From positions 4,139 to 68,138 of the forward strand of contig JAGLCR010000010.1 in NCBI GenBank assembly GCA_023146135.1: a stretch of DNA of 64,000 nt. Direction: 5' to 3'. Made by a program: the position numbers and the translations under genes. Positions 18,369 through 58,961 of this stretch are shown here, piece by piece. Position 1 is the stretch's first letter. Every line of letters begins with the position of its first letter. Source of the DNA: Bacteroidales bacterium (lineage in GTDB: Bacteria; Bacteroidota; Bacteroidia; Bacteroidales; UBA1556). The notes under the pieces were generated by a model, which was not told the DNA's origin, ran no database searches, and saw nothing but the letters and a program-made list of their open reading frames with translations.

Positions 18369-19341
18369 CTTCTTATTCGAGAACAGTAGTGATGCAATTT
18401 TCTTATCAGATTCTTTTGGTGATATTATTGAGGTGAATAGTATTGCCTGTAATCTAATGGGTTATGAAAAAGACGAGCTTCTTAGTCTAAATTTTAGAGA
18501 AATAAAATCACCTAGATATAGAAATATATTTAGTGAAAATATTCAAAATATTATTACGAATAAGGTTTATACATACGAAACCGAACATATTAAAAAAAAT
18601 GGTGATGTTTGTCCCATCGAAATTAAAAGTAGGCTAGCAGAATATAATGGAAAGCAAGTTATTATATCTGTTGCTAGAAATATTCATAGGCGAAAGGCGT
18701 ATGAGCAAAAACTGCTACAAACAATAATTAAAACAGAGGAGAAAGAAAGAAAACGTTTTGCTGAGGATCTTCATGATGGTTTAAGTCCCATATTGTCTAC
18801 AATAAAACTTTATGCCGATTTGCTTAAAAAGGATGATTTTAAACAAACGAGTAAAGAGCAAATAATAAATGATATAGAAGAGTTAGCCGAATTATCAATT
18901 TCAACAGCAAAAGAAATAGCTAATAATATTACTCCTAATATTTTACACGACTTGGGTTTGGTTTCGGCTATTAAAGAGTTCTGCAATTACATTAATAATA
19001 CAAAAAAAATAAGAATAGAATTAAATACAGATAAATATGAACCCTGTAATAATGATTTGGTCGAATCGGTTATTTTTCAGGCTGTAAAAGAGTTGATAAA
19101 TAATGCGTTAAAGCATTCTGAAGCTGATGTTGTTGTATTGGAACTTAAGAGTAACAATAATCAAATAATACTTTATTATAAAGATGATGGGATTGGATTT
19201 AATGTGAATAATGTAATAGGAAGTAGTGGAGGTTTAGGACTTAATAATATTACTAATAAGATTAAGTCAATAAAAGGTAATTGCGATTTTAGCAGTCGTG
19301 AGAATAAAGGTTTAATATTTATGGCAGTAATAAAACTTTAA
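18349..19341 (+). CDS. Cytoplasmic PAS sensor histidine kinase (HisKA_3 type)
   Basis: PAS region followed by the H-box FAEDLHDGLSPIL and an HATPase region (NNALKHS, DDGIGF, GGLGLNN). No TM. Overlaps the lgt end by 20 nt. Confidence 0.85.
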   Translation: MQENIFSFLFENSSDAIFLSDSFGDIIEVNSIACNLMGYEKDELLSLNFREIKSPRYRNIFSENIQNIITNKVYTYETEHIKKNGDVCPIEIKSRLAEYNGKQVIISVARNIHRRKAYEQKLLQTIIKTEEKERKRFAEDLHDGLSPILSTIKLYADLLKKDDFKQTSKEQIINDIEELAELSISTAKEIANNITPNILHDLGLVSAIKEFCNYINNTKKIRIELNTDKYEPCNNDLVESVIFQAVKELINNALKHSEADVVVLELKSNNNQIILYYKDDGIGFNVNNVIGSSGGLGLNNITNKIKSIKGNCDFSSRENKGLIFMAVIKL

Positions 19342-19343
19342 TA

Positions 19344-19970
19344 ATGGAAATAATAGGAGTTATAATAGCTGATGATCATATAATATTTCGCAAAGGGTTA
19401 AGAACGGTGCTTAATGAAATATCGTTTGTCAAAGTGCTCGACGAAGCATCAGATGGACAAGATGTATTAAGGGTAATGAAAATAAACCCAGCCGATATTA
19501 TTTTGATGGATATAAATATGCCTGGTATGAATGGTATTGATGCCACAAAAAAAGTAAAAGAAAAGTATCCAGATACCGAGATTATTGCATTGACTATGCA
19601 TGAGGAAATAGGTTATTTTAATAGAATGATAGAAGCAGGAGCAAAAGGTTTTTTGCAAAAAAAAACTACTAAGGATCAGCTAGCTACTGCAATAAAAAAT
19701 GTATTCTATGGTGAAACATACTTCTCCGAAGAATTTGTGATAAGCACACAAAAGAATGTAGATGTAAAAGCTCCATCTATTTCGATAAGCGATAGAGAAA
19801 AAGATGTGTTAAAACTCATTGCTAAGGGTTATTCGAATGTAGAGATTGCTGAAAAACTGCATATTAGCAAACGAACTATTGATGGACATAAGGCAAGGTT
19901 ATTTGATAAAACAGGAGCTAAGAATGCTCCCAACCTGATTATGTTTGCTTTGAAAAATGGACTTATTTAA
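19344..19970 (+). CDS. NarL/LuxR-type response regulator
   Basis: Receiver (ADDH..., ILMDINMPGMNG) plus a C-terminal LuxR HTH (SDREKDVLKLIAKGYSNVEIAEKLHISKRTIDGH). Confidence 0.9.
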   Translation: MEIIGVIIADDHIIFRKGLRTVLNEISFVKVLDEASDGQDVLRVMKINPADIILMDINMPGMNGIDATKKVKEKYPDTEIIALTMHEEIGYFNRMIEAGAKGFLQKKTTKDQLATAIKNVFYGETYFSEEFVISTQKNVDVKAPSISISDREKDVLKLIAKGYSNVEIAEKLHISKRTIDGHKARLFDKTGAKNAPNLIMFALKNGLI

Positions 19971-20425
19971 AAAGGTTTCAATATCATTAAAAGTATGTAC
20001 TATTAATTCTCCTGAATCTTTGATTTCGTAGATATTCTTATCGAGATCATAAACTTAAATTTACTTAAATAAAAAATTTCCTGTCTGCAAAATGATAAAG
20101 AAAACATGATTTTGTGTTATCAATAATTTCATTTGTGCTTTGCCATTTTCAAGCAATTGGTCTAGCCCCCTATAATTCTGTCCTACTTATTAGGGAGCTA
20201 ATACACAATGCAAAATACCTAAGTAAAAAACAATTTCGAAAATCTTAAATATTTCTTATTTATAAATAATAGAAATTCAAGTAATTACATTTATCTGGAT
20301 AAGATAGTCCTGCATGTTTTATTTTGTGTATCCTTAGTGTAATCAGTATGTTACAATATGAGTGTTAGGTATAAATACGCTAAAAAAAAATACATAATAC
20401 TCTACCCCACGTCTCCATGCTCTTC

Positions 20426-20433
20426 TACATTTG
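20426..20433 (+). promoter_or_regulatory. Candidate -7 box (TACATTTG) for the hydrogenase/signalling cluster
   Basis: Exact TAnnTTTG 48 nt upstream of the ATG at 20481, at the end of a 510-bp ORF-free region. Confidence 0.35.
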
Positions 20434-20480
20434 CCGTATAAATATATCGAAATATAGTAATTATAAAAAACTAATAAACC

Positions 20481-20975
20481 ATGAAAGTAACAAAGAAAAT
20501 TTTAATCGTAGATGATGATATCGATGTGATTAATATCGTAGAAACAATTCTTAGAAATGAAGGTTATACAGTTATTTCGGCAGGAAGTAAAGAAGAAGGT
20601 ATTGAATTAGCGAAAAAGCAAAAACCAGATTTAGCAATTTGTGACGTAATGATGTCGACACACTATGAAGGTTTCGAGTTGGCGCGTGAATTTGCAACAA
20701 ACGAATTATTCGAAGAAATGCCTGTTATAATGCAGACTTCAATTAGTGTATTTGCCTCAAAGGATGAAGATTCAATGAGATTTGCAAGATACTATCGTTC
20801 TGAAATGAATAATCATGATTTAGATGTTTTATTGGTTGAAAATACCAGAATAGGAGATGCAGGGATTGACTATAAAGATGAATCAGGAAAGCTGATTTGG
20901 GTTCCAGTGAAAGCCTTCATTAAAAAGCCAGTAAAAGCCAAGGTGCTTATTGCAAACATTGAGAAATTTATTTAA
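20481..20975 (+). CDS. Stand-alone response-regulator receiver with enlarged alpha4-beta5 region
   Basis: IVDDD, phospho-acceptor context PDLAICDVMM, T/S position MQTS and conserved Lys in FIKKP. About 60 aa separate the last two where ~20 is usual. No output domain. Confidence 0.85.
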   Translation: MKVTKKILIVDDDIDVINIVETILRNEGYTVISAGSKEEGIELAKKQKPDLAICDVMMSTHYEGFELAREFATNELFEEMPVIMQTSISVFASKDEDSMRFARYYRSEMNNHDLDVLLVENTRIGDAGIDYKDESGKLIWVPVKAFIKKPVKAKVLIANIEKFI

Positions 20976-21038
20976 GAAATAAGCACAATATAGTTTTAAT
21001 AGAGCTACTTACGAATATTGAAATTACATAAAATTCAG

Positions 21039-21485
21039 ATGAAACAAATCTTTGAGAAATATATACATGCAGGAAGAGATAGCCTAATTCCAATCCTGCA
21101 AGAAGTACAAGAGGAAGATGGCTTTTTGTCAGAAAATGCCATAGTTGAGATAGGGAAATTATTAAATCTACCCGTAAGTAAGATTTATGGTGTTGCTACA
21201 TTTTATAATCAATTTCGATTTCAACCAAAAGGTAAACATCATGTACAAGTATGTAGAGGTACAGCCTGCCATGTTTTGGGTTCTGCAAATGTTCTTCAAG
21301 AGCTTGAGAAGACATTGAAAATAAAAAATGATGAGACTTCTCGCGACGGGAATTTTAGCTTGGAAGTAGTAGCTTGTATAGGTGCATGTGGTTTAGCCCC
21401 AGTTATTTCCATTAATGGCGAATTTCATGCAAAGGTAACCACTGCATCAATTAAAGAAATCATTAACAATTTGAATCAAAAGTAA
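21039..21485 (+). CDS. hydC: [FeFe]-hydrogenase NuoE-like [2Fe-2S] subunit (HydC type)
   Basis: NuoE/thioredoxin-like 2Fe-2S Cys pattern (CRGTACHV ... CIGACGLAP). The ATG at 21039 is preferred over the track's TTG at 21018. Confidence 0.85.
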   Translation: MKQIFEKYIHAGRDSLIPILQEVQEEDGFLSENAIVEIGKLLNLPVSKIYGVATFYNQFRFQPKGKHHVQVCRGTACHVLGSANVLQELEKTLKIKNDETSRDGNFSLEVVACIGACGLAPVISINGEFHAKVTTASIKEIINNLNQK

Positions 21486-23419
21486 TGAATTTGACAAAAC
21501 AATATATAATACAAGAACTATTGTCAAATCCAACTAAGGATTTTTCAAATACGGATATTATTAAGAATCTCAATAGAGAGATTGTTTCAAAACCTGTAAT
21601 ATTTGTTGGTACTGGTACCTGTGGGTTAGGAGCTGGGGCCGACAAAACTCTTAAAGCTGTTATATCATATTTAAATACGGCTCAAATAGATGCAGATATT
21701 ATTGAAACTGGATGCATTGGTCTATGTTCGTCAGAACCATTGATGGATGTGCAATTGCCAGGTCACAATAGGATTTGTTTTGAGAAAGCTACTGCTGATA
21801 AAGTTGTAGGTGTTTTAGATAGTGTTTTTGATAATAAAGATGACACTAAATTAGAAAGTGCTCTTTGTCAATTTCCTTCCAAAGAAAACCACTCTTGGAA
21901 AAATATTTCTAATATAAATGAATTGCCATTTTTCAAACCTCAATTTAGAATTGTACTTAAAAACTGTGGTATTGTAAATCCTATTAGTATTGATGAGTAT
22001 GTGGCAAGTGGAGGATATACCGGTTTTCTACAGCTTATTAAAAGTGAAAATGCCAAAGAAGTATGCAATATAGTTGAGAAAAGTGGATTACGAGGTAGAG
22101 GTGGTGGTGGTTTCCTTACGGGTAAGAAATGGAAATTTGCGTTAAATACACCCGCAAACCAGAAATACCTTATCTGTAATGCCGATGAAGGAGACCCAGG
22201 TGCTTTTATGGATAGAGCTGTAATTGAAGGAGATCCTCACCGACTTATTGAAGGTATGGCAATAGCTGCTTTTGGTATAGGTGCAACTAAATCATATGTT
22301 TATATTAGAGCAGAGTATCCTCTTGCTATCAAGAGACTTAATATAGCATTAGAACAAGCTAAGGAATATGGTATACTGGGTGAAAATGTATTTGGTACAG
22401 GAGTAAATTTTGAAATAAAAGTAAAAACAGGTGCTGGAGCATTTGTTTGTGGTGAAGAAACAGCATTGATAAATAGTATTGAAGGTAAAAGGGGAATGCC
22501 TCGCCCTCGCCCTCCATTTCCTGCTGTAAGTGGATTGTTTGGGAAACCCACTATTATTAATAATGTAGAGTCATTATCTAATCTTCCTTTTATAATAAAA
22601 GAAGGGGATGATAAGTTTGCTGCAATTGGAACAGAAAAAAGTAAAGGGACTAAAGTTTTTGCTCTTTCTGGTAAAATAGCAAAGACTGGGCTTGTTGAAA
22701 TCCCAATGGGTACAAGTGTTAGAGAGGTAGTGTTTGATATTGCAGGAGGGGTTCCTGATAATAAAAAGTTTAAGTCTGTACAAATTGGTGGTCCTTCAGG
22801 AGGTTGTATTACGGAGCAGAACCTTGATATTCCAATAGAATACGAATCGCTTATTGAAGTTGGAGCCATGATGGGCTCCGGAGGTCTTGTGGTAATGGAC
22901 GAGGATACTTGTATGGTGGATGTTGCAAAATTCTTTATGGATTTTATTCAACGTGAAAGCTGTGGTAAATGTATTCCATGCCGCGAAGGAACAAGAAGAA
23001 TGCTTGAAATACTTGAGGATATTACTCATAAACCTAATACAACTAAAAAGCATGAAGCTCTTCGTAGGTTCAAAGGCGTGACACAGCTCGAACGCCTTGG
23101 TAAAGTTATAAAAGAGACTTCTTTGTGTGGCCTTGGGCAAACAGCTCCAAATCCTGTGTTGAGTACAATTAAATGGTTTAGAGAAGAGTATGAGGAGCAT
23201 ATTTTTGAACGTAAGTGCGCGGCAAATGTTTGTACCGAACTAAGAGTGTTTACTATTGATGTTGATATGTGTACTGGATGTACCATTTGTGCCAAAAAAT
23301 GCCCTACTGATGCAATTATTGGAAGCAGAAAAGCACCACATTTTGTTGTCGAAGACAAATGTATCGCTTGTGGAACTTGCTTCGATGTATGTAAATTTGA
23401 TGCTATCACTATTTCTTAA
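21485..23419 (+). CDS. hydB: [FeFe]-hydrogenase NuoF-like flavin/NAD(H) subunit (HydB type)
   Basis: 644 aa: N-terminal 2Fe-2S-like domain, NuoF core (GLRGRGGGGF, SCGKCIPCREG) and two C-terminal ferredoxin motifs (CTGCTICAKKCP, CIACGTCFDVC). Start overlaps the hydC stop. Confidence 0.9.
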   Translation: MNLTKQYIIQELLSNPTKDFSNTDIIKNLNREIVSKPVIFVGTGTCGLGAGADKTLKAVISYLNTAQIDADIIETGCIGLCSSEPLMDVQLPGHNRICFEKATADKVVGVLDSVFDNKDDTKLESALCQFPSKENHSWKNISNINELPFFKPQFRIVLKNCGIVNPISIDEYVASGGYTGFLQLIKSENAKEVCNIVEKSGLRGRGGGGFLTGKKWKFALNTPANQKYLICNADEGDPGAFMDRAVIEGDPHRLIEGMAIAAFGIGATKSYVYIRAEYPLAIKRLNIALEQAKEYGILGENVFGTGVNFEIKVKTGAGAFVCGEETALINSIEGKRGMPRPRPPFPAVSGLFGKPTIINNVESLSNLPFIIKEGDDKFAAIGTEKSKGTKVFALSGKIAKTGLVEIPMGTSVREVVFDIAGGVPDNKKFKSVQIGGPSGGCITEQNLDIPIEYESLIEVGAMMGSGGLVVMDEDTCMVDVAKFFMDFIQRESCGKCIPCREGTRRMLEILEDITHKPNTTKKHEALRRFKGVTQLERLGKVIKETSLCGLGQTAPNPVLSTIKWFREEYEEHIFERKCAANVCTELRVFTIDVDMCTGCTICAKKCPTDAIIGSRKAPHFVVEDKCIACGTCFDVCKFDAITIS

Positions 23420-23430
23420 AGAAACAACAG

Positions 23431-25149
23431 ATGAAAATTACCGTAAATAATAAAATAATAGAAGCTAATAATGGTGAAACCATATTAGATGCTCTGACTC
23501 GTGAAGGAATAAAGGTTCCAACACTTTGCCACTTGAAAAACATGATGCCCACAGGTGCTTGTAGAATGTGTGTAGTCGAGGATGTTGACTCGGGGAAGCT
23601 AGTAACATCATGCTCTTCACCTGTATACGAAGGCTTAGAGGTGAAAACTCATTCGGCTAGAGTAAACGAGTCGAGAAAAACAATTGTAGAACTATTGCTC
23701 TCTAATCATCCAGACGATTGTTTGTATTGCGTTCGAAATGGAAACTGTGAGCTTCAAGGTCTTTCTGAAGAATTATCGATAACAGAACGTCGTATTAGAG
23801 GAAGAAAGAATAAGCAAGCTCTTGATAGATCAAGTTCTAGTATTGTAAGAGACCCTGAGAAGTGTATTTTGTGCGGTCGTTGTGTTAGAATATGTGAAGA
23901 GGTAATGGGTGTTGCTTGTATTGATTTCGTGCAGCGGGGTAATCAAACGGTTGTGGGAACGGCTTTTGATAATGGTCTAAATACTTCTAGTTGTGTAAAT
24001 TGTGGGCAATGTATAATGGTATGCCCTACAGGAGCTTTAACTGAGAAAAACCATTTTGCAGAAATAAAGCAGGCTTTACAAAATCCAAATATTAAAGTAG
24101 CGATTCAGTATGCACCGTCTATTTCTGTTTCCATAGCCGAAGAATTTGGCATGAAACCAGGTATTGATATTAATGGTATTATGAATGCGGCTATTCGTAA
24201 AATAGGTTTTGACTATGTTTTTGATACTACTTTTGGTGCTGACCTTACCATAATGGAAGAATCATCTGAACTTATTGATAGAATAGTTAATAATGGCAAA
24301 CTGCCTCTAATAACGAGCTGTTGCCCAGGATGGGTGAAATATGCAGAGGAATTTGCCCCTGACTTTATTGATAATATTTCATCGTGTAAGTCGCCACAAC
24401 AGATGACAGGAGCGGTTATTAAAAGCTACTTTATTGAAAAAGAGAAAATAAAAACAGAGGACCTGTATTCAGTAGCTATTATGCCATGTACAGCAAAGAA
24501 GTTTGAAGGGCAGAGGGAAGAAATGACTCAAAATGGAATCTCTGATGTTGATGCTGTTCTTACTACACGTGAGTTTGTTAAGCTTATAAAAATGTATGGT
24601 ATTGATATTCATAACCTAAATTCTGAAGTAGCTAACAACCCTTTGGGCTCAAGAACATCGGCCGGTAAACTTTTTGGAACAACTGGTGGTGTTGCTGAGG
24701 CTGCAATTAGAACTGCACATTACAAACTTACTGGCAAAGAATTAATAGAGTTTAAGATAGAAGCTCTTCGGGATTTCAAAAATAGAAAAGAAACTATAAT
24801 TAAAATTGGTGATTTAGAACTAGGGGTTGCAGTTGTAAATGGTTTAGCAAACGCTAAAGAGTTGCTTGATGAAATACGTGCAGGAAGAAATGACATTCAA
24901 TTTATTGAAGTAATGGCTTGTCCTGGTGGTTGCGTTGGTGGCGGTGGTCAGCCCATAAAAATGGATGAAGAAGCAATAAGGATTCGGGCGAAGTCATTGT
25001 ATAGTATTGATGATAAGGAGTCGTTAAAAGCATCGCATAAAAATCCAGATGTTCAGAAATTATATGCTGACTTCCTTGATGAGCCTTTAAGCGAAAAAGC
25101 TCATAAGCTTCTACATACTCATTATCAGAAACGTGAAGTAATAAAATAA
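23431..25149 (+). CDS. hydA: [FeFe]-hydrogenase catalytic subunit
   Basis: 572 aa with an N-terminal 2Fe-2S ferredoxin, HPDDCLYCVRNGNCELQ, and two 4Fe-4S motifs. H-cluster motifs are L1 TSCCPGWV, L2 MPCTAKKFE and L3 EVMACPGGCVGGGGQP. Confidence 0.93.
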   Translation: MKITVNNKIIEANNGETILDALTREGIKVPTLCHLKNMMPTGACRMCVVEDVDSGKLVTSCSSPVYEGLEVKTHSARVNESRKTIVELLLSNHPDDCLYCVRNGNCELQGLSEELSITERRIRGRKNKQALDRSSSSIVRDPEKCILCGRCVRICEEVMGVACIDFVQRGNQTVVGTAFDNGLNTSSCVNCGQCIMVCPTGALTEKNHFAEIKQALQNPNIKVAIQYAPSISVSIAEEFGMKPGIDINGIMNAAIRKIGFDYVFDTTFGADLTIMEESSELIDRIVNNGKLPLITSCCPGWVKYAEEFAPDFIDNISSCKSPQQMTGAVIKSYFIEKEKIKTEDLYSVAIMPCTAKKFEGQREEMTQNGISDVDAVLTTREFVKLIKMYGIDIHNLNSEVANNPLGSRTSAGKLFGTTGGVAEAAIRTAHYKLTGKELIEFKIEALRDFKNRKETIIKIGDLELGVAVVNGLANAKELLDEIRAGRNDIQFIEVMACPGGCVGGGGQPIKMDEEAIRIRAKSLYSIDDKESLKASHKNPDVQKLYADFLDEPLSEKAHKLLHTHYQKREVIK

Positions 25150-25205
25150 GCTGTTTATTAATTCGAAGATTTACAAAGTCAACAACTTAAAAAGACAATA
25201 GTATA

Positions 25206-27185
25206 ATGCATAATTTTTCAAATGATAATCCACTAGTTTATACCGTAAAAGGCTTGTGTCGTGTTTGTTATACTTGCGTGCGTGAATGTCCTGTTAAAGC
25301 TATTAAGATAATTAGTGGTCAAGCAGAGATAATCACAGAAAGGTGTATTGCATGTGGAAACTGTGTAATAGTGTGTAGTCAGGGAGCCAAAACTTATTAT
25401 TCGTCGATTGAAAAAGTGGAGGATATACTTTTGAATAATAAGCAGAAGATATTATGTGTTGCTCCAAGCTTTGCCGCTGAATTTACTGAAATTGAAAATT
25501 ATAGGATTTTTGTGGGGATGGCAAAAGAATTGGGGTTTGATTTAGTTACAGAGGTGTCTTTTGGTGCTGATTTGGTAGCACAGGCTTATAAGAACGTATT
25601 TGAAAATGAGAGTACAAAAACAATAATAACATCGGATTGCCCTGCTATTGTAAATTATATTAAGCAATATCACCCCAATCTGGTTGAATTTCTTGCTCCA
25701 ATCGTTTCACCAGCCATTGCCATTGCAAAGGTTCTTAAGAAGAAGTATAATAATGATGCTCAATTAGTATTTGTAGGCCCTTGCGTGGCAAAGAAAGCAG
25801 AGTCTGAAAGTTTTGATGAGAATCTTACATTTTCTGAGCTTAGACTGATGTTTGAAAAGCACAATATAATTCCAGATAGAGTAACTGCTGCTGATTTTGA
25901 TAAACCAATATCTGGAAAAGGAGCTTTTTTTCCAGTTAATCATGGCTTACTAAAAAGTCTAAATAAGACAGAGGGTTTTGGAAAAGGAGAAGTAATAACT
26001 GCTGAAGGAAAGACAAAGTTTCGAGAAGCAATACAAGAGTTTGAGAATGGTGTTCTAAAGAATCAACATCTTGAATTATTGTGCTGCGATGGATGTATTG
26101 AAGGTCCTGGAATGTCTGTAAAAGGACAAAAGTTGGTTAAAAGGATGAAGATTAGTGAGTATGTGAATAACAAACTTAATAAGCTTGATAATGAAGAATG
26201 GGAGAAAGAAAAAGAGCAATACTCTAAATTGGATTTAACAAGAGAATTTTGTACAAATGACCAAAGATTACCTCAGCCGAATGAATATGAGATAAATAAC
26301 ATTCTTATTTCAATGGGAAAAGTTAAAGATAAAGATATGCTCAACTGCGGTGCTTGTGGATATGAAACATGTAAAGCCTATGCAAGTGCAGTGGTTGAAG
26401 GACTAGCAGAAACAGAAATGTGCTTACCTTATGCTATTGAAAAACTGCATAAGTCCAATGAAGAACTTCATCAATCAAATATGCAATTGTCGGATACCAA
26501 GGTAGCATTAAAACAATCAGAAAAGCTTGCTAGCATGGGGCAGTTGTCAGCAGGAATAGCTCATGAACTTAATAACCCACTTGGTATTATTACTCTTTAT
26601 AGTAGTATTCTCAAAGATGAATTAAATAATAAAAGTGAACTTTTTGAGGATATTGAAATTATAAACGAACAGGCCGAACGTTGTAAAACAATAGTCGAAG
26701 GCCTACTGAATTTTGCTCGAAAAAATAAAGTAACGCTGAAAGAAACTAATATTGTAGAGTTTATAGAAAAAAGCTTCAAATCTTTTGTTAAACCCGATGA
26801 TATTCAAATAGAATTTAACTACGATATTAAGTGTCAGTTGGTGAAATTAGATGTCGAGCAAATGATGCAAGCGATAACTAATATTGAAAAAAATGCGGTT
26901 GAAGCTATGCCAAATGGTGGACTAATTGCTATTAGTATTAATGAAGTTAAAGGTAGTTTTATTATTAAAATATCAGATACAGGTGCAGGTATTGCCAAAG
27001 AAAATTTAGAAAAAATATTTACGCCTTTCTTTACTACTAAAGGTGTTAATAAAGGTACTGGACTTGGATTGCCTCTAGTGTATGGAATTGTAAAAATGCA
27101 TAAGGGAAAGATAAATGTACAATCAAATAATCAGCCTGACAATGGTAGTACAGGTACTACCTTCACTATTACTTTACCAAAGTAA
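25206..27185 (+). CDS. Sensory-type [FeFe]-hydrogenase-like domain fused to histidine kinase (HydS-like kinase)
   Basis: Two Fer4 motifs (C18-C28, C47-C57) and an H-domain paralogue (SFGADL, TSDCPAIV, GPCVAKKAE, ELLCCDGC). These are followed by Cx2Cx4Cx16C (C381-C406), the H-box SAGIAHELNNPL, the N-box NAVEAM and G-boxes DTGAGI / GTGLGL. Confidence 0.88.
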   Translation: MHNFSNDNPLVYTVKGLCRVCYTCVRECPVKAIKIISGQAEIITERCIACGNCVIVCSQGAKTYYSSIEKVEDILLNNKQKILCVAPSFAAEFTEIENYRIFVGMAKELGFDLVTEVSFGADLVAQAYKNVFENESTKTIITSDCPAIVNYIKQYHPNLVEFLAPIVSPAIAIAKVLKKKYNNDAQLVFVGPCVAKKAESESFDENLTFSELRLMFEKHNIIPDRVTAADFDKPISGKGAFFPVNHGLLKSLNKTEGFGKGEVITAEGKTKFREAIQEFENGVLKNQHLELLCCDGCIEGPGMSVKGQKLVKRMKISEYVNNKLNKLDNEEWEKEKEQYSKLDLTREFCTNDQRLPQPNEYEINNILISMGKVKDKDMLNCGACGYETCKAYASAVVEGLAETEMCLPYAIEKLHKSNEELHQSNMQLSDTKVALKQSEKLASMGQLSAGIAHELNNPLGIITLYSSILKDELNNKSELFEDIEIINEQAERCKTIVEGLLNFARKNKVTLKETNIVEFIEKSFKSFVKPDDIQIEFNYDIKCQLVKLDVEQMMQAITNIEKNAVEAMPNGGLIAISINEVKGSFIIKISDTGAGIAKENLEKIFTPFFTTKGVNKGTGLGLPLVYGIVKMHKGKINVQSNNQPDNGSTGTTFTITLPK

Positions 27186-27222
27186 AAAAAATATTGTAAA
27201 ACAAAAAGGTAAAACAAATATT

Positions 27223-27618
27223 ATGGATACTCAAAACAAAACGATACTAATAGTTGACGATGATCAAGATTGTCTTAATCTTGTAAAGTTTCACTGCGAA
27301 CGATTTGGATTTAATACTATTACAGCTGAAAGTCAGAAGGAATGTGAAGAAATAATTGAGACTCAAAAACCTGATCTTGCAATTTTCGATTTGATGATGG
27401 AAAATGATGATAGTGGCTTTATACTGTCTTATAAATTGAAAAAAAAATATCCCGATGTTCCAGTAATTCTTGCCACAGCAGCATCTTCAGTTAGTGGGTA
27501 CATTTTCGAATTGGAGAATGAGACGGACAAAAGTTGGATGAAAGCAGATGTGTTTATGGAGAAAAATATTCGTCCCGATCAACTACATAGGGAGATAAAT
27601 AAACTATTGAAGCTGTAA
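27223..27618 (+). CDS. Stand-alone response-regulator receiver
   Basis: MDTQNKTILIVDDD ... KPDLAIFDLMM, a paralogue of the 20481 receiver. The ATG at 27223 is chosen because the track's start at 27115 overlaps the upstream kinase. Confidence 0.85.
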   Translation: MDTQNKTILIVDDDQDCLNLVKFHCERFGFNTITAESQKECEEIIETQKPDLAIFDLMMENDDSGFILSYKLKKKYPDVPVILATAASSVSGYIFELENETDKSWMKADVFMEKNIRPDQLHREINKLLKL

Positions 27619-27655
27619 GTTGTATTATATTTTATAAGAAGTAATTGAAATAATT

Positions 27656-28768
27656 ATGGAAAAACTAAGAATACTAATCGTTGATGATGAACAAGGCATT
27701 AGAACAGGAATAAGAAGGGGGCTAAGAGGTTTAGTTGTCTCTTTTCCTTTTCACGATGACGATTTTGAATATGATATAATTGATGCCGAAACTGGAGAAG
27801 AGGCTTTGTCAATAATAGAAAATGAGCTTGTTGATATAGTTTTACTTGATAATAAACTGCCAGGAATAGAAGGGATAGAAGTATTAGAGATAATAAAGGA
27901 AAGAAAATACGACTTGTCAGTGATGATGATAACATCTTATGCTTCAATAGAGTTGGCCGTTAAGGCTACTAATAATGGCGCTTTTAATTTTGTCCCAAAG
28001 CCATTTACTAAGCAAGAGCTTACTACTGCAATTGAAAGTATTACTAAGCACTTATTTTTAAAACGAATGACCAGAAAGATGAAAGCAGAAGGAAAAAAAA
28101 TACGATTTCAGTTTCTTTCTGTGCTATCTCACGAACTAAAGTCACCAATAAATACGGTAGAAAGCTATTTGCGAATAATACAAGATAGGCAAGCAGGTGA
28201 CAATATTGATGCTTACGATACTATGGTAAAACGGTCTTTGGATAGATTAGAATCTATGCGAACACTTATTATGGACATGCTTGATTTTACTCGAATAGAG
28301 TCGGGTAGGAAGGCGAGAAATATTACTGATATTGATATAATTGATATTGCCAAAACAGCAATTTATTCCGTTGAAATAGCAGCAAAAGCGAAGGGTATTC
28401 ACATCCTTATGAATTTCCCAAAAACACTTTACCTTAAAGCAGATGCTTCTGATTTTGAAATAATATTCAATAATTTGCTCTCAAATGCAGTAAAGTACAA
28501 TAAGGAGTCTGGGGAAATAATTATTTCAATCAATGAACAAGATAGTCAAATTAAGATTGTAGTTGAGGATACTGGTATTGGAATGAATGTAAAGGAGAAG
28601 TCGCACCTTTTTGAAGAGTTTATGAGAGCTAAAAATGTAAAGACAAGGAATATTTCGGGTACAGGGCTTGGTTTATCAATTATGAAGAAAATAGTTGATC
28701 TTAATAAGGGCTCTATCGAAGTAGAGAGTACTCCCGATATTGGTTCAAAGTTTACTGTGATTATATAA
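27656..28768 (+). CDS. Receiver-histidine kinase hybrid (REC-HisKA-HATPase)
   Basis: N-terminal receiver (ILIVDDE, VLLDNKLPG, FVPKP), H-box LSVLSHELKSPIN, and HATPase motifs (NAVKYN, DTGIGM, GTGLGLSI). Confidence 0.88.
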   Translation: MEKLRILIVDDEQGIRTGIRRGLRGLVVSFPFHDDDFEYDIIDAETGEEALSIIENELVDIVLLDNKLPGIEGIEVLEIIKERKYDLSVMMITSYASIELAVKATNNGAFNFVPKPFTKQELTTAIESITKHLFLKRMTRKMKAEGKKIRFQFLSVLSHELKSPINTVESYLRIIQDRQAGDNIDAYDTMVKRSLDRLESMRTLIMDMLDFTRIESGRKARNITDIDIIDIAKTAIYSVEIAAKAKGIHILMNFPKTLYLKADASDFEIIFNNLLSNAVKYNKESGEIIISINEQDSQIKIVVEDTGIGMNVKEKSHLFEEFMRAKNVKTRNISGTGLGLSIMKKIVDLNKGSIEVESTPDIGSKFTVII

Positions 28769-29137
28769 TTCACCTTTTATAGGAGCGTAAACTCTATTTA
28801 TGTAACAACCTATTCAAGAAGAAGAGGGTGTAGTATAATACAACTTGGCTTTATGCGAAAAGTTTTCTGTAAAATGAGATAGATATTTTGTGCTTTTTCT
28901 CAAATTATGAGGTTTATTCACAAACTTTCGTTGCAGCAATATGAAAATAACTGTACCAAATATAAGTATTAGGTACATGCTAATTTATATATTGCTATCT
29001 TTTGGATTGATAACATATGTCCAAATCAACCTATTGTAATGTTGATTATATTTGGAAGGTGTAGCAATCAGGCAAATAATAAAAGAATAATTTTGCCCTG
29101 ATTTATTTCATAGTTTTGTAGGCATAGGCAATAATCT

Positions 29138-29145
29138 TAAATTTG
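29138..29145 (+). promoter_or_regulatory. Candidate -7 box (TAAATTTG) abutting the TPR-kinase start
   Basis: Exact TAnnTTTG ending 3 nt before the ATG at 29149, at the end of a 374-bp gap. Confidence 0.35.
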
Positions 29146-29148
29146 ATA

Positions 29149-31449
29149 ATGAAGCAATATTTCAAGACTTTAGTATTCATTATTTTTCTTCTAGTTTCAA
29201 TCTCAGAAGTAAAAAGTCAAAGCGATTTAAAACAATCGATCCAGCAAGATATTTCTCGTATTGATAGTCTTATACAAAAAGGTGATTTAGTAAATGCAAA
29301 CTTGCAACTAAAGAAGAGTATAGCAATGTCTCAAAAACATAGATTGCGTCCATTTTTACCTGATCTTTATTGGTTTAAGGGGGGGTTGAAATGTAAAGAA
29401 AAATTGTATAGAGATGCTTTTTCGGCCTATTATAGAGCGTATGCCATAAGTGTGTTGATGGAGGATTCCTTGGATGTTTTCATGTCATTATATCACCTAA
29501 GTAAATTTTATGTCTGCTCAGGCGACACCTTTGATATGAAGCCTTTTTATATTAAGAGCCTTGAGTACCTTAAAGAGGGGCTGCCATTTGTACCAGCAGT
29601 TAATGACTCTTTAAGTCTTGCTAAATATTATTATAAACTGGCTACAGCCTATTCTAGTACGGATGATTGGAACTCTGCAGTGACGTATTATTTAATGTCA
29701 AAAACTATAGCTCAAAATAAAAATAATCAATCATTGACAATTAGTATATTGGATGGTGTTTCTAGATCAAATATTGAGCTAGGGGAATATCCAATAGCAA
29801 TCAATTATTTGAATGAGCTTATACAAATATACCAGTCTCAAGGCGAATCGGATAAGATATTTGATGCTATTATAGAATTGTCTGATAGTTACTATAGTAT
29901 GAGAAAATATAGTGATGCAGTTATTCATTTGAAGTCAATAGTTGACGCAAAGAATGCCCCTCAGGATGCACAACTCCAAGCAATGATTAGACTTGCGAAA
30001 GTAAATATGCAAATAGGAGAGGATGGTCGGGCTGATGCTTTAGAGTATCTTAATGAATCGATTGCTTTGTCCAGGGTGTTAAATGATATAGAATCAGAGG
30101 TATATGCCTTGAATTTATTAGCTGTTTATTATAATATATTAGGTGATTTAATAAATACTGAAAAAGCTAATAAAAAGGCTGTTGAATTACTACTGATAGA
30201 TAAGCATTATAATTCTAAAATGTTGGTGTACAGTATGTCAATTGCTATTTATAAAAAGAAAAAGGATTATAGTAAAGTATCAGAATATCAAGAATTGTAT
30301 ATAGATGCCAATAAGCAGAAAAGTGAAGATGCATATCAGAAATTAAATGTAGAGAAAAAGGAGACTAAGCATCTTGCTAATACGGAAAGCAAACTCATGG
30401 TTGCTATTTTCTTAGAGGCAATTAAGAATCTTAATGATTCAGTTGTAAAGCGTGAAGCAGAAAATCGAGAAACAAAACGAGATCGCAATTACTTATTTGC
30501 GTTTGTAATTATAGGTTTAGTAATTTTAATTATTGTAGTCGTTTTTTATTTTTCCTTGCGAAAGAAAAGTAAAGCTTTGGTAGATAAAAACAATATTATT
30601 ATTAAAGCACACAAAAAAACAGAAGATGTTTTACTAAAGTTGAAGAAAACACAAGCTCAGTTAATAGAGTCGGAGCGGCTGGCTTCACTGGGTGAACTTA
30701 CTGCTGGCATTGCCCACGAGATACGCAATCCACTAAATTTTGTAAATAACTTTTCGAGTCTTAATGTGGAATTATCTGAGGAATTGCAAACTGAAATTGA
30801 TGAGCATATTAAGGATGAAGAATTATTGGAAGATTTGTCTGAAATAACAGATATGATTTCGAATAATAGTAAAAAAATTAATGATCATGGTGAACGTGCT
30901 TCACGTATTATCAAGCAAATGTTGGACTCATCGCGAAAGGGGAGCGATCATTTTGAAGAAACTGAGATTAGCCTTCTAGTTGAAGAAACAGCTAAGCTTG
31001 CTTATCAAGGAGTGAGGGGTAAATATATTAATTTCTCTGCTGATATGGTCTTTGATTTTGATAAACTAGTTGGTAGAAGGAGCGTTGCAGTAGATGGGCT
31101 AGGGAGGGTAATTATTAACCTAGTAACTAACTCATGCCATGCCCTATTGGAAAAGGCTAAAACAGATAAAGAATTTAAACCAAAGTTATTGGTTCAAACT
31201 AAAGATGCTGCTGATTATTTCGATATTATTATTGAGGATAATGGTATTGGTATGAGTGATGATTTGAAAGCAAAAATATTTGATCCCTTTTTTACAACCA
31301 AACCCACAGGTGAAGGTACAGGCTTAGGATTAACAATGAGTTTTGATATTTTAACTAATGTGCATAAAGGTTCAATAATAGTGGAGTCTAAGCTAGGTGA
31401 ATTTACACGTTTTACATTACGAATCCCTAAAAAAAAGAAGAGCATATAA
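29149..31449 (+). CDS. TPR-repeat sensor histidine kinase (signal peptide, ~450-aa extracytoplasmic TPR region, one TM)
   Basis: Signal peptide MKQYFKTLVFIIFLLVSISEVKSQ, TPR-like helical repeats, TM YLFAFVIIGLVILIIVVVFYF, H-box TAGIAHEIRNPLNF, and HATPase motifs (DNGIGM, GTGLGL). The ATG at 29149 is preferred over the TTG at 29143. Confidence 0.85.
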   Translation: MKQYFKTLVFIIFLLVSISEVKSQSDLKQSIQQDISRIDSLIQKGDLVNANLQLKKSIAMSQKHRLRPFLPDLYWFKGGLKCKEKLYRDAFSAYYRAYAISVLMEDSLDVFMSLYHLSKFYVCSGDTFDMKPFYIKSLEYLKEGLPFVPAVNDSLSLAKYYYKLATAYSSTDDWNSAVTYYLMSKTIAQNKNNQSLTISILDGVSRSNIELGEYPIAINYLNELIQIYQSQGESDKIFDAIIELSDSYYSMRKYSDAVIHLKSIVDAKNAPQDAQLQAMIRLAKVNMQIGEDGRADALEYLNESIALSRVLNDIESEVYALNLLAVYYNILGDLINTEKANKKAVELLLIDKHYNSKMLVYSMSIAIYKKKKDYSKVSEYQELYIDANKQKSEDAYQKLNVEKKETKHLANTESKLMVAIFLEAIKNLNDSVVKREAENRETKRDRNYLFAFVIIGLVILIIVVVFYFSLRKKSKALVDKNNIIIKAHKKTEDVLLKLKKTQAQLIESERLASLGELTAGIAHEIRNPLNFVNNFSSLNVELSEELQTEIDEHIKDEELLEDLSEITDMISNNSKKINDHGERASRIIKQMLDSSRKGSDHFEETEISLLVEETAKLAYQGVRGKYINFSADMVFDFDKLVGRRSVAVDGLGRVIINLVTNSCHALLEKAKTDKEFKPKLLVQTKDAADYFDIIIEDNGIGMSDDLKAKIFDPFFTTKPTGEGTGLGLTMSFDILTNVHKGSIIVESKLGEFTRFTLRIPKKKKSI

Positions 31450-31477
31450 ATGCTAACTAAAAAAAATCAGAACGAAA

Positions 31478-32641
31478 ATGAGCGAAGTATTTAAGATATT
31501 ATGTGTAGATGATGAGCCTGATATGGAGATGCTTATTCGTCAAAAGTACCGCAAAGAAATACGAAAGGGAATTTATGATTTCTATTTTGCTTTAGATGGA
31601 GAAAAAGCCCTTGACTTGCTAAACGAGTATAAAGATATCTATTTGGTGCTCTCTGATATTAATATGCCAGTGATGGATGGATTGAGTTTGTTAAATGAAA
31701 TTCAGAAGTTGGAAAAGCCTGAAATGAAAGTAGTAATGGTATCGGCATATGGAGATATGCAAAATATTCGTACTGCCATGAATCGTGGTGCTTTTGATTT
31801 TATCAATAAACCTATTGATTTTGAAGACTTTACCAAAACCATAGAAAAAGCTCATCTTGAGATTAATCGTATTCAAAAGCAAGTTCAAACGGCACATGTT
31901 TTAGAGGTGGTTGAAGATGATTTGTCGGCAGCAGCCAAAATTCAAGATGGCCTATTGCCAAAACTTAGTGGTTTGTTTAAGGCAAATGAGCGATTAAATG
32001 TGGCTAGTTTTATTAAGCCAGCACGTTGGGGTGGTGGCGATTTTTATGATGTATTTGCCATTGACGATAAGCGAATAGGTTTTATTATTGCTGATGTATC
32101 GGGCAAAGGAATTCCTGCCGCTGTATTTATGTACTTAAGCCGCACAACGCTACGTATATATAGTAGTTTATACGAAAATCCCTCAGATGTTCTTTCCGCT
32201 GCCAACGAATACCTTAATGTTGATAATGATAGCTCTATGTTTGTAACCGTTTTTTATGCGGTATTAAATACAGAAACAAATGAGTTTATGTATAGTAATG
32301 CAGGTCACAACCCACCTTACTTAATAAGCAATGGTGAAATATCGGCAATGCCGATTACTAAAAATATGGCGCTTGGTGTAATGCCATCATTACCTTATGC
32401 AGATTTAACTATAAGCCTTAAGTCAGGCGATAAGTTTTTTATGTTTACCGACGGGGTGAGCGAATGCATGAATGAGGCGAATGAAGAGTATGGTGAAGAG
32501 CGAATTGAGCAGTTTTTGAGCGATCATATTAATGAAGATGTAGTTACGCTAGTGGATAAAATGAATAATGTATTGAGTAGGTATCAAGGCAATGCCGAGC
32601 AGCATGATGATATTACGATGCTTAGTTTTCAGTTTGATTAG
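31478..32641 (+). CDS. Response regulator with PP2C/SpoIIE-type Ser/Thr phosphatase output
   Basis: Receiver (LCVDDE, VLSDINMPVMDG, FINKP) followed by PP2C motifs (GGDFYDV, IADVSGKG, FTDGVSE, DDITMLSF). Confidence 0.88.
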   Translation: MSEVFKILCVDDEPDMEMLIRQKYRKEIRKGIYDFYFALDGEKALDLLNEYKDIYLVLSDINMPVMDGLSLLNEIQKLEKPEMKVVMVSAYGDMQNIRTAMNRGAFDFINKPIDFEDFTKTIEKAHLEINRIQKQVQTAHVLEVVEDDLSAAAKIQDGLLPKLSGLFKANERLNVASFIKPARWGGGDFYDVFAIDDKRIGFIIADVSGKGIPAAVFMYLSRTTLRIYSSLYENPSDVLSAANEYLNVDNDSSMFVTVFYAVLNTETNEFMYSNAGHNPPYLISNGEISAMPITKNMALGVMPSLPYADLTISLKSGDKFFMFTDGVSECMNEANEEYGEERIEQFLSDHINEDVVTLVDKMNNVLSRYQGNAEQHDDITMLSFQFD

Positions 32642-32643
32642 TT

Positions 32644-32668
32644 AAAAAATCAGGAAGTGTGATTTTTT
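32644..32668 (+). terminator. Weak A/T hairpin after the phosphatase gene
   Basis: AAAAAATCA / TGATTTTTT is a perfect 9-bp stem with a 7-nt loop starting 3 nt after the stop. It is AU-rich and therefore weak. Confidence 0.35.
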
Positions 32669-32868
32669 AAGGTATTAATCAATCAATAAGCAGCTTTTTT
32701 TTGGTTTGCATTTAAAAAATGATAAAACTAGAAAATGGCACCTTGTGAATAGTGTATAAATGTCTAAAATTCAAATGTATAATAAGTATAAAGAAAACCA
32801 GAATACGGACTTTATAAATATCTATATATTTTAGTTGATAAAACTAATAAATGATAGAAATAAAATCG

Positions 32869-32876
32869 TAAATTTG
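32869..32876 (+). promoter_or_regulatory. Candidate -7 box (TAAATTTG)
   Basis: Exact TAnnTTTG 66 nt upstream of the sucD ATG. Confidence 0.35.
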
Positions 32877-32941
32877 TCACTTCGAAAAATAAACACGTCT
32901 TTTTTAATAAAAGATTAGAACCCCAAATAAAACACATTATT

Positions 32942-33811
32942 ATGAGTGTATTAGTAAATAAAGATTCAAAAGTTATTGTTCAGGGCTTTACCGGAGGTGA
33001 AGGAACATTCCATGCTGGACAAATGATTGATTATGGTACCAATGTAGTTGGTGGAGTAACTCCAGGAAAAGGTGGTCAAGAGCATCTTGGAAAACCTGTT
33101 TTTAATACTGTTAAAGATGCCGTTGATAAAGCACAGGCTGATACTTCAGTTATTTTTGTGCCACCACCATTTGCAGCAGATGCAATAATGGAAGCTGCCG
33201 AGGCAGGTATTAAAGTGATTATTTGTATTACCGAAGGACTTCCTACTAAGGATATGGTTGCGGTTAAAGAATTTTTATCAGATAAAGATTGTCGTTTAGT
33301 TGGACCTAACTGTCCAGGAGTTATTACTCCAGGTGAGGCTAAAGTAGGTATCATGCCAGGATTTATCCATCAAAAAGGTAGAGTAGGTATTGTTTCTCGT
33401 TCAGGAACTTTAACATATGAAGCTGTAGATCAATTGACTAAAATTGGCTTAGGTCAAACAACAGCTATCGGTATTGGTGGTGACCCAATTATTGGAACTA
33501 CCACTCGTGATGCAGTGGAGCTTTTGATGAATGATCCAGAAACTGAAGGAATTGTAATGATTGGTGAGATTGGTGGAAACATGGAGGCTGATGCTGCTTA
33601 TTGGATTAAAGAAAATGGAACAAAGCCTGTAGTGAGTTTTATCGCTGGTGCTACTGCTCCTAAAGGTCGCACAATGGGTCATGCCGGTGCTATCGTTGGT
33701 GGAACTGCTGATACTGCTGAAGCTAAGAAAGAGATTCTTACTGAGTGCGGAGTTCATGTAGTTGATTCTCCAGCTGATTTAGGAACTAAAATGGCTGAGC
33801 TTCTGAAATAA
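32942..33811 (+). CDS. sucD: Succinate--CoA ligase subunit alpha
   Basis: SRSGTLTYE and phosphohistidine loop MGHAGAIV; 289 aa. Confidence 0.93.
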
Positions 33812-33870: not shown

Positions 33871-34278
33871 TTATTTTGTATTAATTTCTAGATGCTTTTG
33901 CTCAACTGTTTCACATATTTCATTGAATAAAGTATCGGGATAGTACCGCCGAGTATGGCTGACTGTGCTTGGTGCCGGTAGCTTATCATCTAAATTGTAA
34001 TCCAAGAAAAAAAGTAGATCAAGTCGTATGCGACAAAGAGCGATAAGCTTACGGTCGCTACTGATATTTTCATGTGTGCGGATAAAACAAAGTTTGAAGA
34101 AAACTACAGGGTCAAGAGACTCTTTCCCCTTTTTGCCATATAAAGACTCGGTAAGTTTATAAATAAAACTGAAATCAATACTTCTTTTCAGTTTACGGTA
34201 GTAATTGTTTGACGGAATTCGTCTCGATAATTGAATAGCAGTAAATAGCTTTTCTTCATATTTCTTTTTTCCTTGCAT
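33871..34278 (-). pseudogene. Truncated IS5/IS1182-type transposase (N-terminal DUF772-like fragment only)
   Basis: 135 aa; GKESLDPVVFFKLCFIRTHENISSDRKL ... LPAPSTVSHTRR matches the InsH-type N-terminal domain. No DDE domain follows and the ORF stops 3 nt from the sucD terminator. Confidence 0.7.
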
Positions 34279-42250: not shown

Positions 42251-42256
42251 ATATAA

Positions 42257-57927: not shown

Positions 57928-57931
57928 AATA

Positions 57932-58954: not shown

Positions 58955-58961
58955 CTACCCT

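Follow-up and report, generated by a model that had tools for sequence, protein, structure and literature searches.

We found that a 64,000-nucleotide stretch of Bacteroidales bacterium DNA (assembly GCA_023146135.1, contig JAGLCR010000010.1; hereafter the window, numbered from its first letter; GC content 34.8%) encodes hydS-HK, a gene whose product joins a predicted sensory-type [FeFe] hydrogenase directly to a histidine kinase. We consider it fairly probable that this product is an H2-responsive cytoplasmic histidine kinase that would report H2 partial pressure to a receiver (REC) protein and a REC-kinase encoded beside it, and so tune the neighboring bifurcating hydrogenase. hydS-HK is unexceptional within a large family that had already been predicted. 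The gene and the parts of its product are as follows.

25206..27185, + strand: hydS-HK, 659 amino acids (aa), predicted soluble sensory-type [FeFe] hydrogenase-histidine kinase fusion (open reading frame, Pfam)
25248..25388, + strand: N-terminal 2x[4Fe-4S] ferredoxin-type domain, aa 15-61 (Pfam Fer4/Fer4_10, Fer4 E 3.5e-07)
25446..26108, + strand: H-domain, aa 81-301 (Pfam Fe_hyd_lg_C, full profile, E 1.8e-41)
26340..26429, + strand: C-terminal Cx2Cx4Cx16C [4Fe-4S] domain, aa 379-408 (PF04060 'FeS', E 5.6e-11)
26424..26534, + strand: helical linker, aa 407-443, running from C406 to the DHp domain, with Leu at 414, 421, 428, and 435
26535..27179, + strand: transmitter, HisKA/DHp aa 444-506 plus HATPase_c aa 549-658 (Pfam, PDB matches)

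The Pfam search recovered Fer4, Fe_hyd_lg_C, HisKA (E 3e-14), and HATPase_c (E 9e-23) within 25206-27185, with domain scores well above chance. A first-pass annotation, made from the sequence alone, had described a 659-aa open reading frame with two ferredoxin motifs, an H-domain, a Cx2Cx4Cx16C motif, and a HisKA/HATPase_c module, and we reproduced every residue and coordinate that it quoted: the ferredoxin-type cysteines C18/21/24/28 and C47/50/53/57; the H-domain motifs SFGADL (118), TSDCPAIV (142), GPCVAKKAE (191), and ELLCCDGC (290); D144, encoded by GAT at 25635-25637; C381, C384, C389, and C406 at nucleotides 26346-26423; and the phospho-acceptor H453, which sits in SAGIAHELNNPL. The HydA encoded in the window has the corresponding motifs TFGADL, TSCCPGWV, MPCTAKKFE, and EVMACPGGC. 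That annotation also called hydS-HK a clear paralogue of HydA; the two do share the H-domain motifs, but they are only 24% identical over 324 residues (E 1e-18), so the word clear was too strong. The product is an exact match to NCBI MCK5856279.1, recorded as '4Fe-4S binding protein', and its start codon is sound because the N-terminus agrees with the family consensus. Hydropathy analysis found no transmembrane segment in the protein (maximum KD19 1.9). In the AlphaFold2 monomer, the H-domain has a predicted local distance difference test score (pLDDT) of ~90 and resembles CbA5H, the HydA of HydABC, DdH, and CpI over ~400-450 aligned columns (Foldseek E 1e-20 to 1e-16), while the C-terminus superposes with the ZraS kinase core (Foldseek). 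The structure prediction that had been proposed as a check therefore matches solved [FeFe] hydrogenases at one end and a solved kinase at the other.

Residue equivalences were assigned in CpI numbering, with HMMER against CpI, T. maritima HydA, and other solved enzymes and with MAFFT against the HydA of the window. The alignments give the following correspondences.

C300 of CpI is C145 of hydS-HK: H-cluster ligand
C355 is C193: H-cluster ligand
C499 is C294: H-cluster ligand
C503 is C297: H-cluster ligand
K358 is K196: [2Fe] pocket
A230-P231-S232 is A86-P87-S88: [2Fe] pocket
S323-P324 is S168-P169: [2Fe] pocket
C299 is D144: proton relay
M353 is G191: second sphere
M497 is L292: second sphere
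S319 is A164: proton pathway

The positions of E279 and E282 have no conserved Glu, and R286 falls on a gap or Asn (HMMER, MAFFT); the group A proton pathway (E279/E282/S319/R286) is not kept in hydS-HK. We assessed conservation in two sets, one of 120 close homologues (56-100% identity) and one of 82 sequences drawn from GTDB genomes that span more than 10 phyla. D144, C145, C193, K196, C294, C297, the four C-terminal cysteines, and H453 are invariant in all 120 close homologues, throughout which A86-P87-S88 is also kept. Across phyla, C145, C193, C294, C297, K196, G191, S168, and P169 are unchanged in 82 of 82 sequences. The N-terminal cluster cysteines are present in 119-120 of the close homologues and in 73-82 of the 82 sequences, where the losses are gaps only, and the C-terminal cluster cysteines in 120 and 81-82, respectively.

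The four H-cluster cysteines had been described as retained, and as residues they are; the part that did not stand is collinearity with group A, as loop L3 is one residue shorter in hydS-HK and spaces its ligands as C294-x2-C297, Cx2C not Cx3C (HMMER, MAFFT). Taking C293 as the C499 equivalent would restore Cx3C, an assignment that we rejected: position 293 is Cys in 68 of the 82 sequences and A, S, or F in the other 14, whereas C294 never varies, and C293 is therefore not a ligand. Both spacings are found in the wider sensory clade.

The relay position requires a similar distinction. Asp occupies it in all 120 close homologues and in 46 of the 82 sequences across phyla, the remainder having T, S, or N, and in more distant sensory modules it is mostly P, A, T, S, or C; the putative relay Asp is specific to a Bacteroidota-centered clade. 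Asp is the sole relay substitution that leaves CpI and CrHydA1 30-90% active, and the carboxylate of CpI C299D hydrogen-bonds the azadithiolate (adt) amine (PMC6226526). The structure of that variant, 6glz, is among the top PDB sequence matches of hydS-HK. Because Asp leaves CpI 30-90% active, D144 alone is no evidence for slow chemistry. Thus, the first-pass claim that positions tied to fast catalysis differ is confirmed for D144, G191, and L292, while the slow turnover it implied does not follow from the Asp relay by itself.

Overall, the predicted site is of the sensory type. The pattern proposed for sensory groups C and D, as described for TmHydS and TamHydS, is present, with the ligands kept, the second sphere replaced, the proton pathway lost, and a Cx2Cx4Cx16C motif, which defines groups C and D (PMC8163306); the alignment to CpI that had been suggested places both the Cys ligands and the second-sphere positions. 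By every feature that sequence can address, hydS-HK classifies as a predicted sensory-type [FeFe] hydrogenase of groups C/D.

The same deviations could be read differently, as in Nar1/IOP-like proteins: the [2Fe] subcluster would no longer be bound, and the protein would be an Fe-S sensor of O2, NO, or iron that shuts down an oxygen-labile hydrogenase operon. TSDCP, GPC, and CCDGC do depart from the published signatures, the L3 spacing is shortened, and a 2024 survey reports that the P1-P3 H-cluster signatures are hardly found in proteins classed C1 (PMC11406978). Moreover, PAS-type paralogues in related loci truly lack one ligand. About 20 Bacteroidales loci (including L009, L010, L013, L017, L020, and L030) have a second HydS paralogue upstream of hydC and divergently oriented, 35-41% identical to hydS-HK; none lies in the window. 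In the one at L030:3073-4938 (- strand), a weakly matching PAS domain takes the place of the kinase, and a SpoIIE/PP2C gene comes next. Asn or Asp replaces the C499 equivalent in many members of this group (L3 reads FNIFYNE-GC), whose L1 reads ANCP, and they may not bind a normal H-cluster. Since many paralogues in the same loci have lost the C499-equivalent Cys, the kinase-fused form is under stronger ligand constraint. In hydS-HK and its kinase-fused relatives, the four ligands, K196, and the backbone motifs that contact CN-/CO are invariant across phyla; Cx2C coexists with Cx3C inside one sensory clade; and TmHydS, which departs in a similar way, its three second-sphere sites being Ala, Gly, and Ser, incorporates a functional H-cluster. 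We therefore regard loss of the [2Fe] subcluster as quite improbable and favor an H-cluster-based sensor.

The output half of the protein is similarly conserved. The HATPase_c boxes of hydS-HK are N563, D591xGxG595, and G617xGxG621, and H453, E454, N457, P458, N563, D591, G593, G595, G617, G619, and G621 are invariant in 82 of 82 sequences, in line with the complete HisKA/HATPase_c module claimed at first pass. With its H, N, G1, and G2 boxes, the transmitter is predicted to be a complete class I histidine kinase. Its nearest solved relatives are ZraS and KinB (PDB sequence search). The segment joining sensor to kinase is constrained in length: of 228 direct fusions, 204 place H453 47 residues after C406, the other recurrent lengths (33, 40, 54, and 68) each differ from 47 by a multiple of 7, and lengths in heptad register account for 225 of the 228, three being off register. 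A linker quantized in heptads is the expected product of a continuous coiled-coil signaling helix, and its occurrence suggests that such a helix is present; the C-terminal cluster domain and DHp helix 1 would then appear to be rigidly, mechanically coupled.

The hydrogenase-kinase fusion is common, not rare. All of the best 120 database matches of hydS-HK have the full-length fusion architecture, and a scan that took one genome from each GTDB species found 80 loci, of which every one but a contig-end fragment (L081) is a near-full-length fusion. Fusion loci occur in Bacteroidota, Hydrogenedentota, Planctomycetota, Myxococcota, Desulfobacterota, and Calditrichota, and also in Acidobacteriota, Verrucomicrobiota, Fibrobacterota, Thermoleophilia, Melainabacteria, and Spirochaetota; some from Hydrogenedentota and Calditrichota are 46-48% identical to hydS-HK. 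The sensor module is also used with other outputs. Among the 150 best 50%-identity representatives of residues 1-415, 42 have the same kinase type. Most of the other 108 fall below 630 aa (69 of them at 560-629 aa); these we take to be of the PAS type from their length and one scanned paralogue. Longer modules without the same kinase have a HisKA_3 kinase, a sigma-54 activator (AAA+ plus HTH), PAS plus a sigma-54 activator, or GGDEF plus HD-GYP (output-swapped fusions P0142, P0167, P0179, P0209, P0180, P0181, P0185, P0217, P0254, and P0137). An HTH was recognized in most of the sigma-54 AAA+ fusions, with or without PAS, and these would be one-component H2-responsive enhancer-binding proteins; sigma-54 fusions of the HydS module are not discussed in the literature that we searched. 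One input domain on many signaling outputs is the classical signature of a sensor.

Downstream of a trimeric hydrogenase, hydS-HK lies in a gene cassette that is itself conserved. Its other members in the window are as follows.

21018-21485, + strand: hydC, part of the trimeric hydrogenase (Pfam)
21485-23419, + strand: hydB, part of the trimeric hydrogenase (Pfam)
23431-25149, + strand: hydA, part of the trimeric hydrogenase, adjoining hydS-HK (Pfam)
27223..27618, + strand: stand-alone receiver, 131 aa, 37 nucleotides past hydS-HK, candidate phospho-acceptor (Pfam Response_reg)
27656..28768, + strand: REC-HisKA-HATPase_c protein, 370 aa, the cassette's second kinase, with its receiver at the N-terminus (Pfam)

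hydC-hydB-hydA encodes a predicted trimeric NADH/ferredoxin-type (bifurcating-type) [FeFe] hydrogenase, and HydA scores above the cutoff of NCBIfam NF040763, 'NADH-dependent [FeFe] hydrogenase, group A6'; no NCBIfam model spans the hydrogenase-kinase fusion. Gaps of 56 nucleotides separate hydA from hydS-HK, 37 hydS-HK from the receiver gene, and 37 the receiver gene from the REC-kinase gene. A mechanical list of open reading frames gives the receiver as 167 aa (27115-27618), overlapping the end of hydS-HK by 71 nucleotides; because homologues are 129-131 aa long, we take the ATG at 27223 as its start. By eye, the receiver sequences show the usual conserved acidic, Thr/Ser, and Lys residues. 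When the window proteins were mapped onto the 82 loci, HydA was found upstream of hydS-HK in 77, HydB in 68, and HydC in 67, while a stand-alone REC of ~130 aa lay downstream in 73 and a REC-kinase in 79. The full order hydC-hydB-hydA-hydS/HK-REC-REC/HK is kept in ~70 of the 82 loci across phyla.

This linkage bears on a further possibility, that the protein is a fourth catalytic or electron-transfer subunit of HydABC and its kinase secondary. [quoted passage not shown] The remaining proton pathway is absent, however, and characterized relatives turn over slowly (PMC8163306). A module that also occurs on transcription activators and cyclic-di-GMP enzymes fits an input domain, not a complex subunit, and the solved structures matched in our structure searches are described as HydABC complexes, with no HydS-like chain among the matches. 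We consider a subunit role very unlikely, and continue with hydS-HK as a sensor kinase.

On that reading, hydS-HK would be cytoplasmic and probably dimeric. Its input module (two F-clusters, the H-cluster site, and the C-terminal [4Fe-4S] domain) would bind H2 and slowly turn it over, and the resulting change, in the redox state of the H-cluster and other clusters or in conformation, would be relayed through the C-terminal cluster domain and the fixed-heptad coiled coil into the DHp helix bearing H453. The balance of autokinase and phosphatase activities would shift, phosphoryl groups would pass to the stand-alone receiver, the receiver of the REC-kinase, or both, and the expression or activity of the presumably co-transcribed HydABC could in this way be matched to H2 partial pressure. 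Insertion of the H-cluster, dependence on H2, whether the response is positive or negative, which proteins accept the phosphoryl group, and what is regulated are all inferred here. An H2-sensing role for the sensory class to which hydS-HK belongs is independently predicted in the literature. A conformational relay is favored over electron transfer to the C-terminal cluster because of the heptad linker and the behavior of Thermoanaerobacter mathranii HydS (TamHydS), in which 1 atm H2 does not reduce the C-terminal cluster and this cluster has little effect on catalysis; the authors of that work conclude that the cluster may be structural in signaling (PMC13104023). The more detailed proposal, that H2 acting at an Asp-relay H-cluster drives His autophosphorylation mechanically rather than by redox, through the [4Fe-4S] domain and a heptad-locked coil, and so feeds a REC/REC-kinase relay shared by more than 10 phyla, we advance tentatively and rate at a little below even.

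Several observations weigh against this account. In the AlphaFold2 monomer the linker and DHp helices are broken, with pLDDT of 36-50, confidence too low for the region to be used for or against a continuous helix. The Cx2C spacing of L3 differs from the Cx3C of all structurally characterized enzymes. The conserved cassette of the 82 loci includes no DNA-binding output. Maturation capacity is an assumption, because hydE, hydF, and hydG were found neither in the 64-kb window (Pfam, essentially all open reading frames of at least 100 aa) nor in the 10 kb past its 5' end; the adjacent canonical HydA would need HydE, HydF, and HydG too. The TamHydS result disfavors a simple trigger in which an electron reaches the C-terminal cluster. 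Finally, a literature search returned no paper testing kinase activity in a sensory [FeFe] hydrogenase.

The N-terminal clusters allow another interpretation, in which hydS-HK senses the cellular redox state: its F-clusters would equilibrate with a reduced ferredoxin or NADH-linked pool, the kinase would report the redox state of that pool, and the H-cluster would act only as a source or sink of electrons, setting the mid-point through the H+/H2 couple. Two conserved ferredoxin-type clusters do lie at the protein-surface end of the module, the operon partner HydABC uses ferredoxin and NADH, and in TamHydS electrons travel mainly by the N-terminal clusters, which H2 reduces, unlike the C-terminal one (PMC13104023). 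A pure ferredoxin sensor, however, needs no strictly conserved [2Fe] pocket (K196, APS, SP, and the bridging Cys) in every lineage, and redox sensing is in any case compatible with H2 sensing, as one module would bring H2 and ferredoxin into equilibrium. We regard a redox sensor as unlikely, and retain H2 as the probable input.

Other signaling genes and candidate control elements surround the cassette.

20481..20975, + strand: receiver protein with a C-terminal extension, 164 aa, first gene of the putative operon (Pfam)
18349-19341, + strand: PAS-HisKA_3-HATPase kinase, forming a NarL-type pair with the next gene (Pfam)
19344-19970, + strand: REC-GerE/LuxR regulator, the sole DNA-binding protein near the cassette (Pfam)
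20367..20380, + strand: candidate operator AGGTATAAATACGC, RGGT-N6-ACCY with one mismatch, ~114 bp before the first operon gene
20426-20433, + strand: Bacteroidetes-type -7 box, TAcaTTTG, 3' of the candidate operator
29143-31449, + strand: TPR-HisKA-HATPase kinase, outside the conserved cassette (Pfam)
31478-32641, + strand: REC-PP2C/SpoIIE phosphatase, outside the conserved cassette (Pfam)

Of the 82 loci, 14, all from close Bacteroidales relatives, keep the 164-aa receiver, and L001, L002, and 5-9 further loci keep the PAS-HisKA_3 and REC-GerE pair; close Bacteroidales relatives, one of them on a 4.27-Mb contig, share all three genes. The nearby REC-GerE protein is a candidate output regulator in this close clade. 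Perfect copies of RGGT-N6-ACCY lie at -109 to -121 before the first operon gene in L001, L002, L008, and L012, and 15 upstream regions contain 6 perfect matches, against an expectation of 0.013 per 300 bp. The motif is not enriched across the window as a whole, only its operon-upstream position being conserved in related loci, and loci with the position-conserved palindrome also carry the PAS-HisKA_3/REC-GerE pair. We propose the palindrome as a candidate operator for a LuxR-type regulator. A scan of 19300-33200 for sigma-70 promoters and terminators gave counts close to the shuffled expectation and did not mark out the limits of the operon; such a scan does not cover Bacteroidota promoters.

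The TPR-kinase and REC-PP2C genes were considered as members of the system and rejected, as almost none of the 82 loci has them in the corresponding place. The REC-PP2C gene echoes the PP2C gene beside the PAS-type HydS paralogue of L030, and kinase-type and phosphatase-type outputs may be linked in this genome; no anti-sigma or STAS partner was seen near 29143-32641. Past a lone succinyl-CoA ligase alpha-type gene (32942-33811), a 135-aa open reading frame with a DUF772 transposase domain (33871-34278, - strand) is probably a transposase fragment marking the end of the conserved region. Farther along are citrate lyase genes (41024-43837, + strand), namely an acyl carrier protein (gamma)-HpcH/HpaI beta fusion at 41024-42250 and CitF alpha at 42257-43837, and type IX secretion cargo and machinery in 38026-40863 and 55603-62939 (Por_Secre_tail, PorP/SprF, and a 1325-aa CHU_C, SprB, and PKD protein); together with the GC content, these secretion genes are in keeping with a Bacteroidota origin.

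How [FeFe] sensory hydrogenases transmit a signal is the question to which these fusions speak. In 2026, work on TamHydS refuted the cluster-reduction model and asked for interaction partners (PMC13104023). Kinase fusions offer the most direct route, with autophosphorylation in the presence and absence of H2 as an in vitro readout, and candidate partners of the fused sensor are encoded next door. If our proposal is true, it would provide the first demonstrated signaling mechanism for any [FeFe] sensory hydrogenase and explain why the C-terminal cluster is conserved despite not being reduced by H2. Fusions of this family are widespread among anaerobic Bacteroidota and in many further phyla and, because they lie beside the bifurcating hydrogenase that sets fermentation balance, probably control the response of fermenters to H2 build-up in sediments, digesters, and guts. 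This significance belongs to the whole family and is not specific to the window, and the fusion itself would come as no surprise to a specialist.

Indeed, the family has been anticipated twice. HydDB (2016) defines [FeFe] group C1 as a 'histidine kinase-linked (putative)' sensory subgroup (PMC5037454), predicted to sense H2 through histidine kinases, and hydS-HK resembles its members in Bacteroidales that lie beside a bifurcating Hnd/HydABC; one is ING2E5A_0849 of Petrimonas mucosa, a C1 enzyme adjoining Hnd genes (PMC7768429). The 2024 survey describes BfuT with a kinase-domain fusion downstream of bfuA in Hydrogenedentota, Calditrichota, and Bacteroidota, some of the latter having a second bfuT upstream of bfuC; the kinase-domain fusion is sub-type V, and Caldithrix abyssi is the representative of kinase-fused BfuT (PMC11406978). 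Both features recur here, in the kinase-bearing sensory hydrogenase directly downstream of hydA and in the second upstream copies of related loci. We liken hydS-HK to BfuT WP_006928132.1 by architecture, synteny, and taxonomy, not by alignment. The two schemes disagree on class, HydDB naming C1 as kinase-linked while the 2024 paper finds no HATPase_c in the best C1 reference and places kinase fusions beside A3 enzymes, BfuT among them, in C3 (PMC11406978). The first-pass annotation therefore overestimated novelty, C1, BfuT, and the wide distribution of the fusion all preceding it. What may be new are the heptad-step linker, the clade-invariant relay Asp, the conserved REC and REC-kinase pair, and the sigma-54 and GGDEF/HD-GYP fusions; the BfuT account is bioinformatic only, and its available part mentions neither REC and REC-kinase genes nor linker periodicity nor the relay Asp (PMC11406978).

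Among sensory [FeFe] enzymes, only TmHydS and TamHydS have been characterized biochemically in the literature to April 2026. The annotation's statement that studied members have PAS or, in TamHydS, no output, and that kinase signaling has only been predicted, agrees with the literature that we searched. The HydS of Thermotoga maritima (TmHydS; group C, M2f), compared by its published description, shares with hydS-HK the N-terminal 2x[4Fe-4S] domain, all H-domain ligands, Gly in place of M353, a residue other than Cys in place of C299, and the Cx2Cx4Cx16C motif; it differs in having a PAS output rather than a kinase, Ala131 in place of D144, and Ser267 in place of L292. TamHydS (group D, M2e) has the same three-part sensor module, with C20 as a ligand of one N-terminal cluster and C379 as a ligand of the C-terminal one, the nearby Cys of hydS-HK being at 18 and 381; in contrast to hydS-HK it has no fused output, and it has Ser/Thr at M353 and a C-terminal cluster that H2 does not reduce.

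On the kinase side, ZraS/AtoS/NtrB-type HisKA kinases are closest to the hydS-HK transmitter (ZraS 9jfj, E 3.5e-31), and the AtoS and ZraS NCBIfam models match it at E 1e-48 to 1e-56, below the model cutoffs. Kinases of that type sit in the membrane and take periplasmic or PAS inputs, whereas hydS-HK is predicted to be soluble with a metallocluster input. The [NiFe] regulatory hydrogenases are functional analogues, with a separate kinase, HoxJ or HupT. The same logic, in which a low-activity hydrogenase serves as H2 sensor for a kinase that controls hydrogenase genes, operates in HoxBC-HoxJ-HoxA of Cupriavidus necator and in HupUV-HupT-HupR (HydDB [NiFe] 2b), H2-sensing systems treated in PMC5665086. 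They differ from hydS-HK in an unrelated metal site and fold, a sensor separate from its PAS-containing kinase, and a response regulator that is known.

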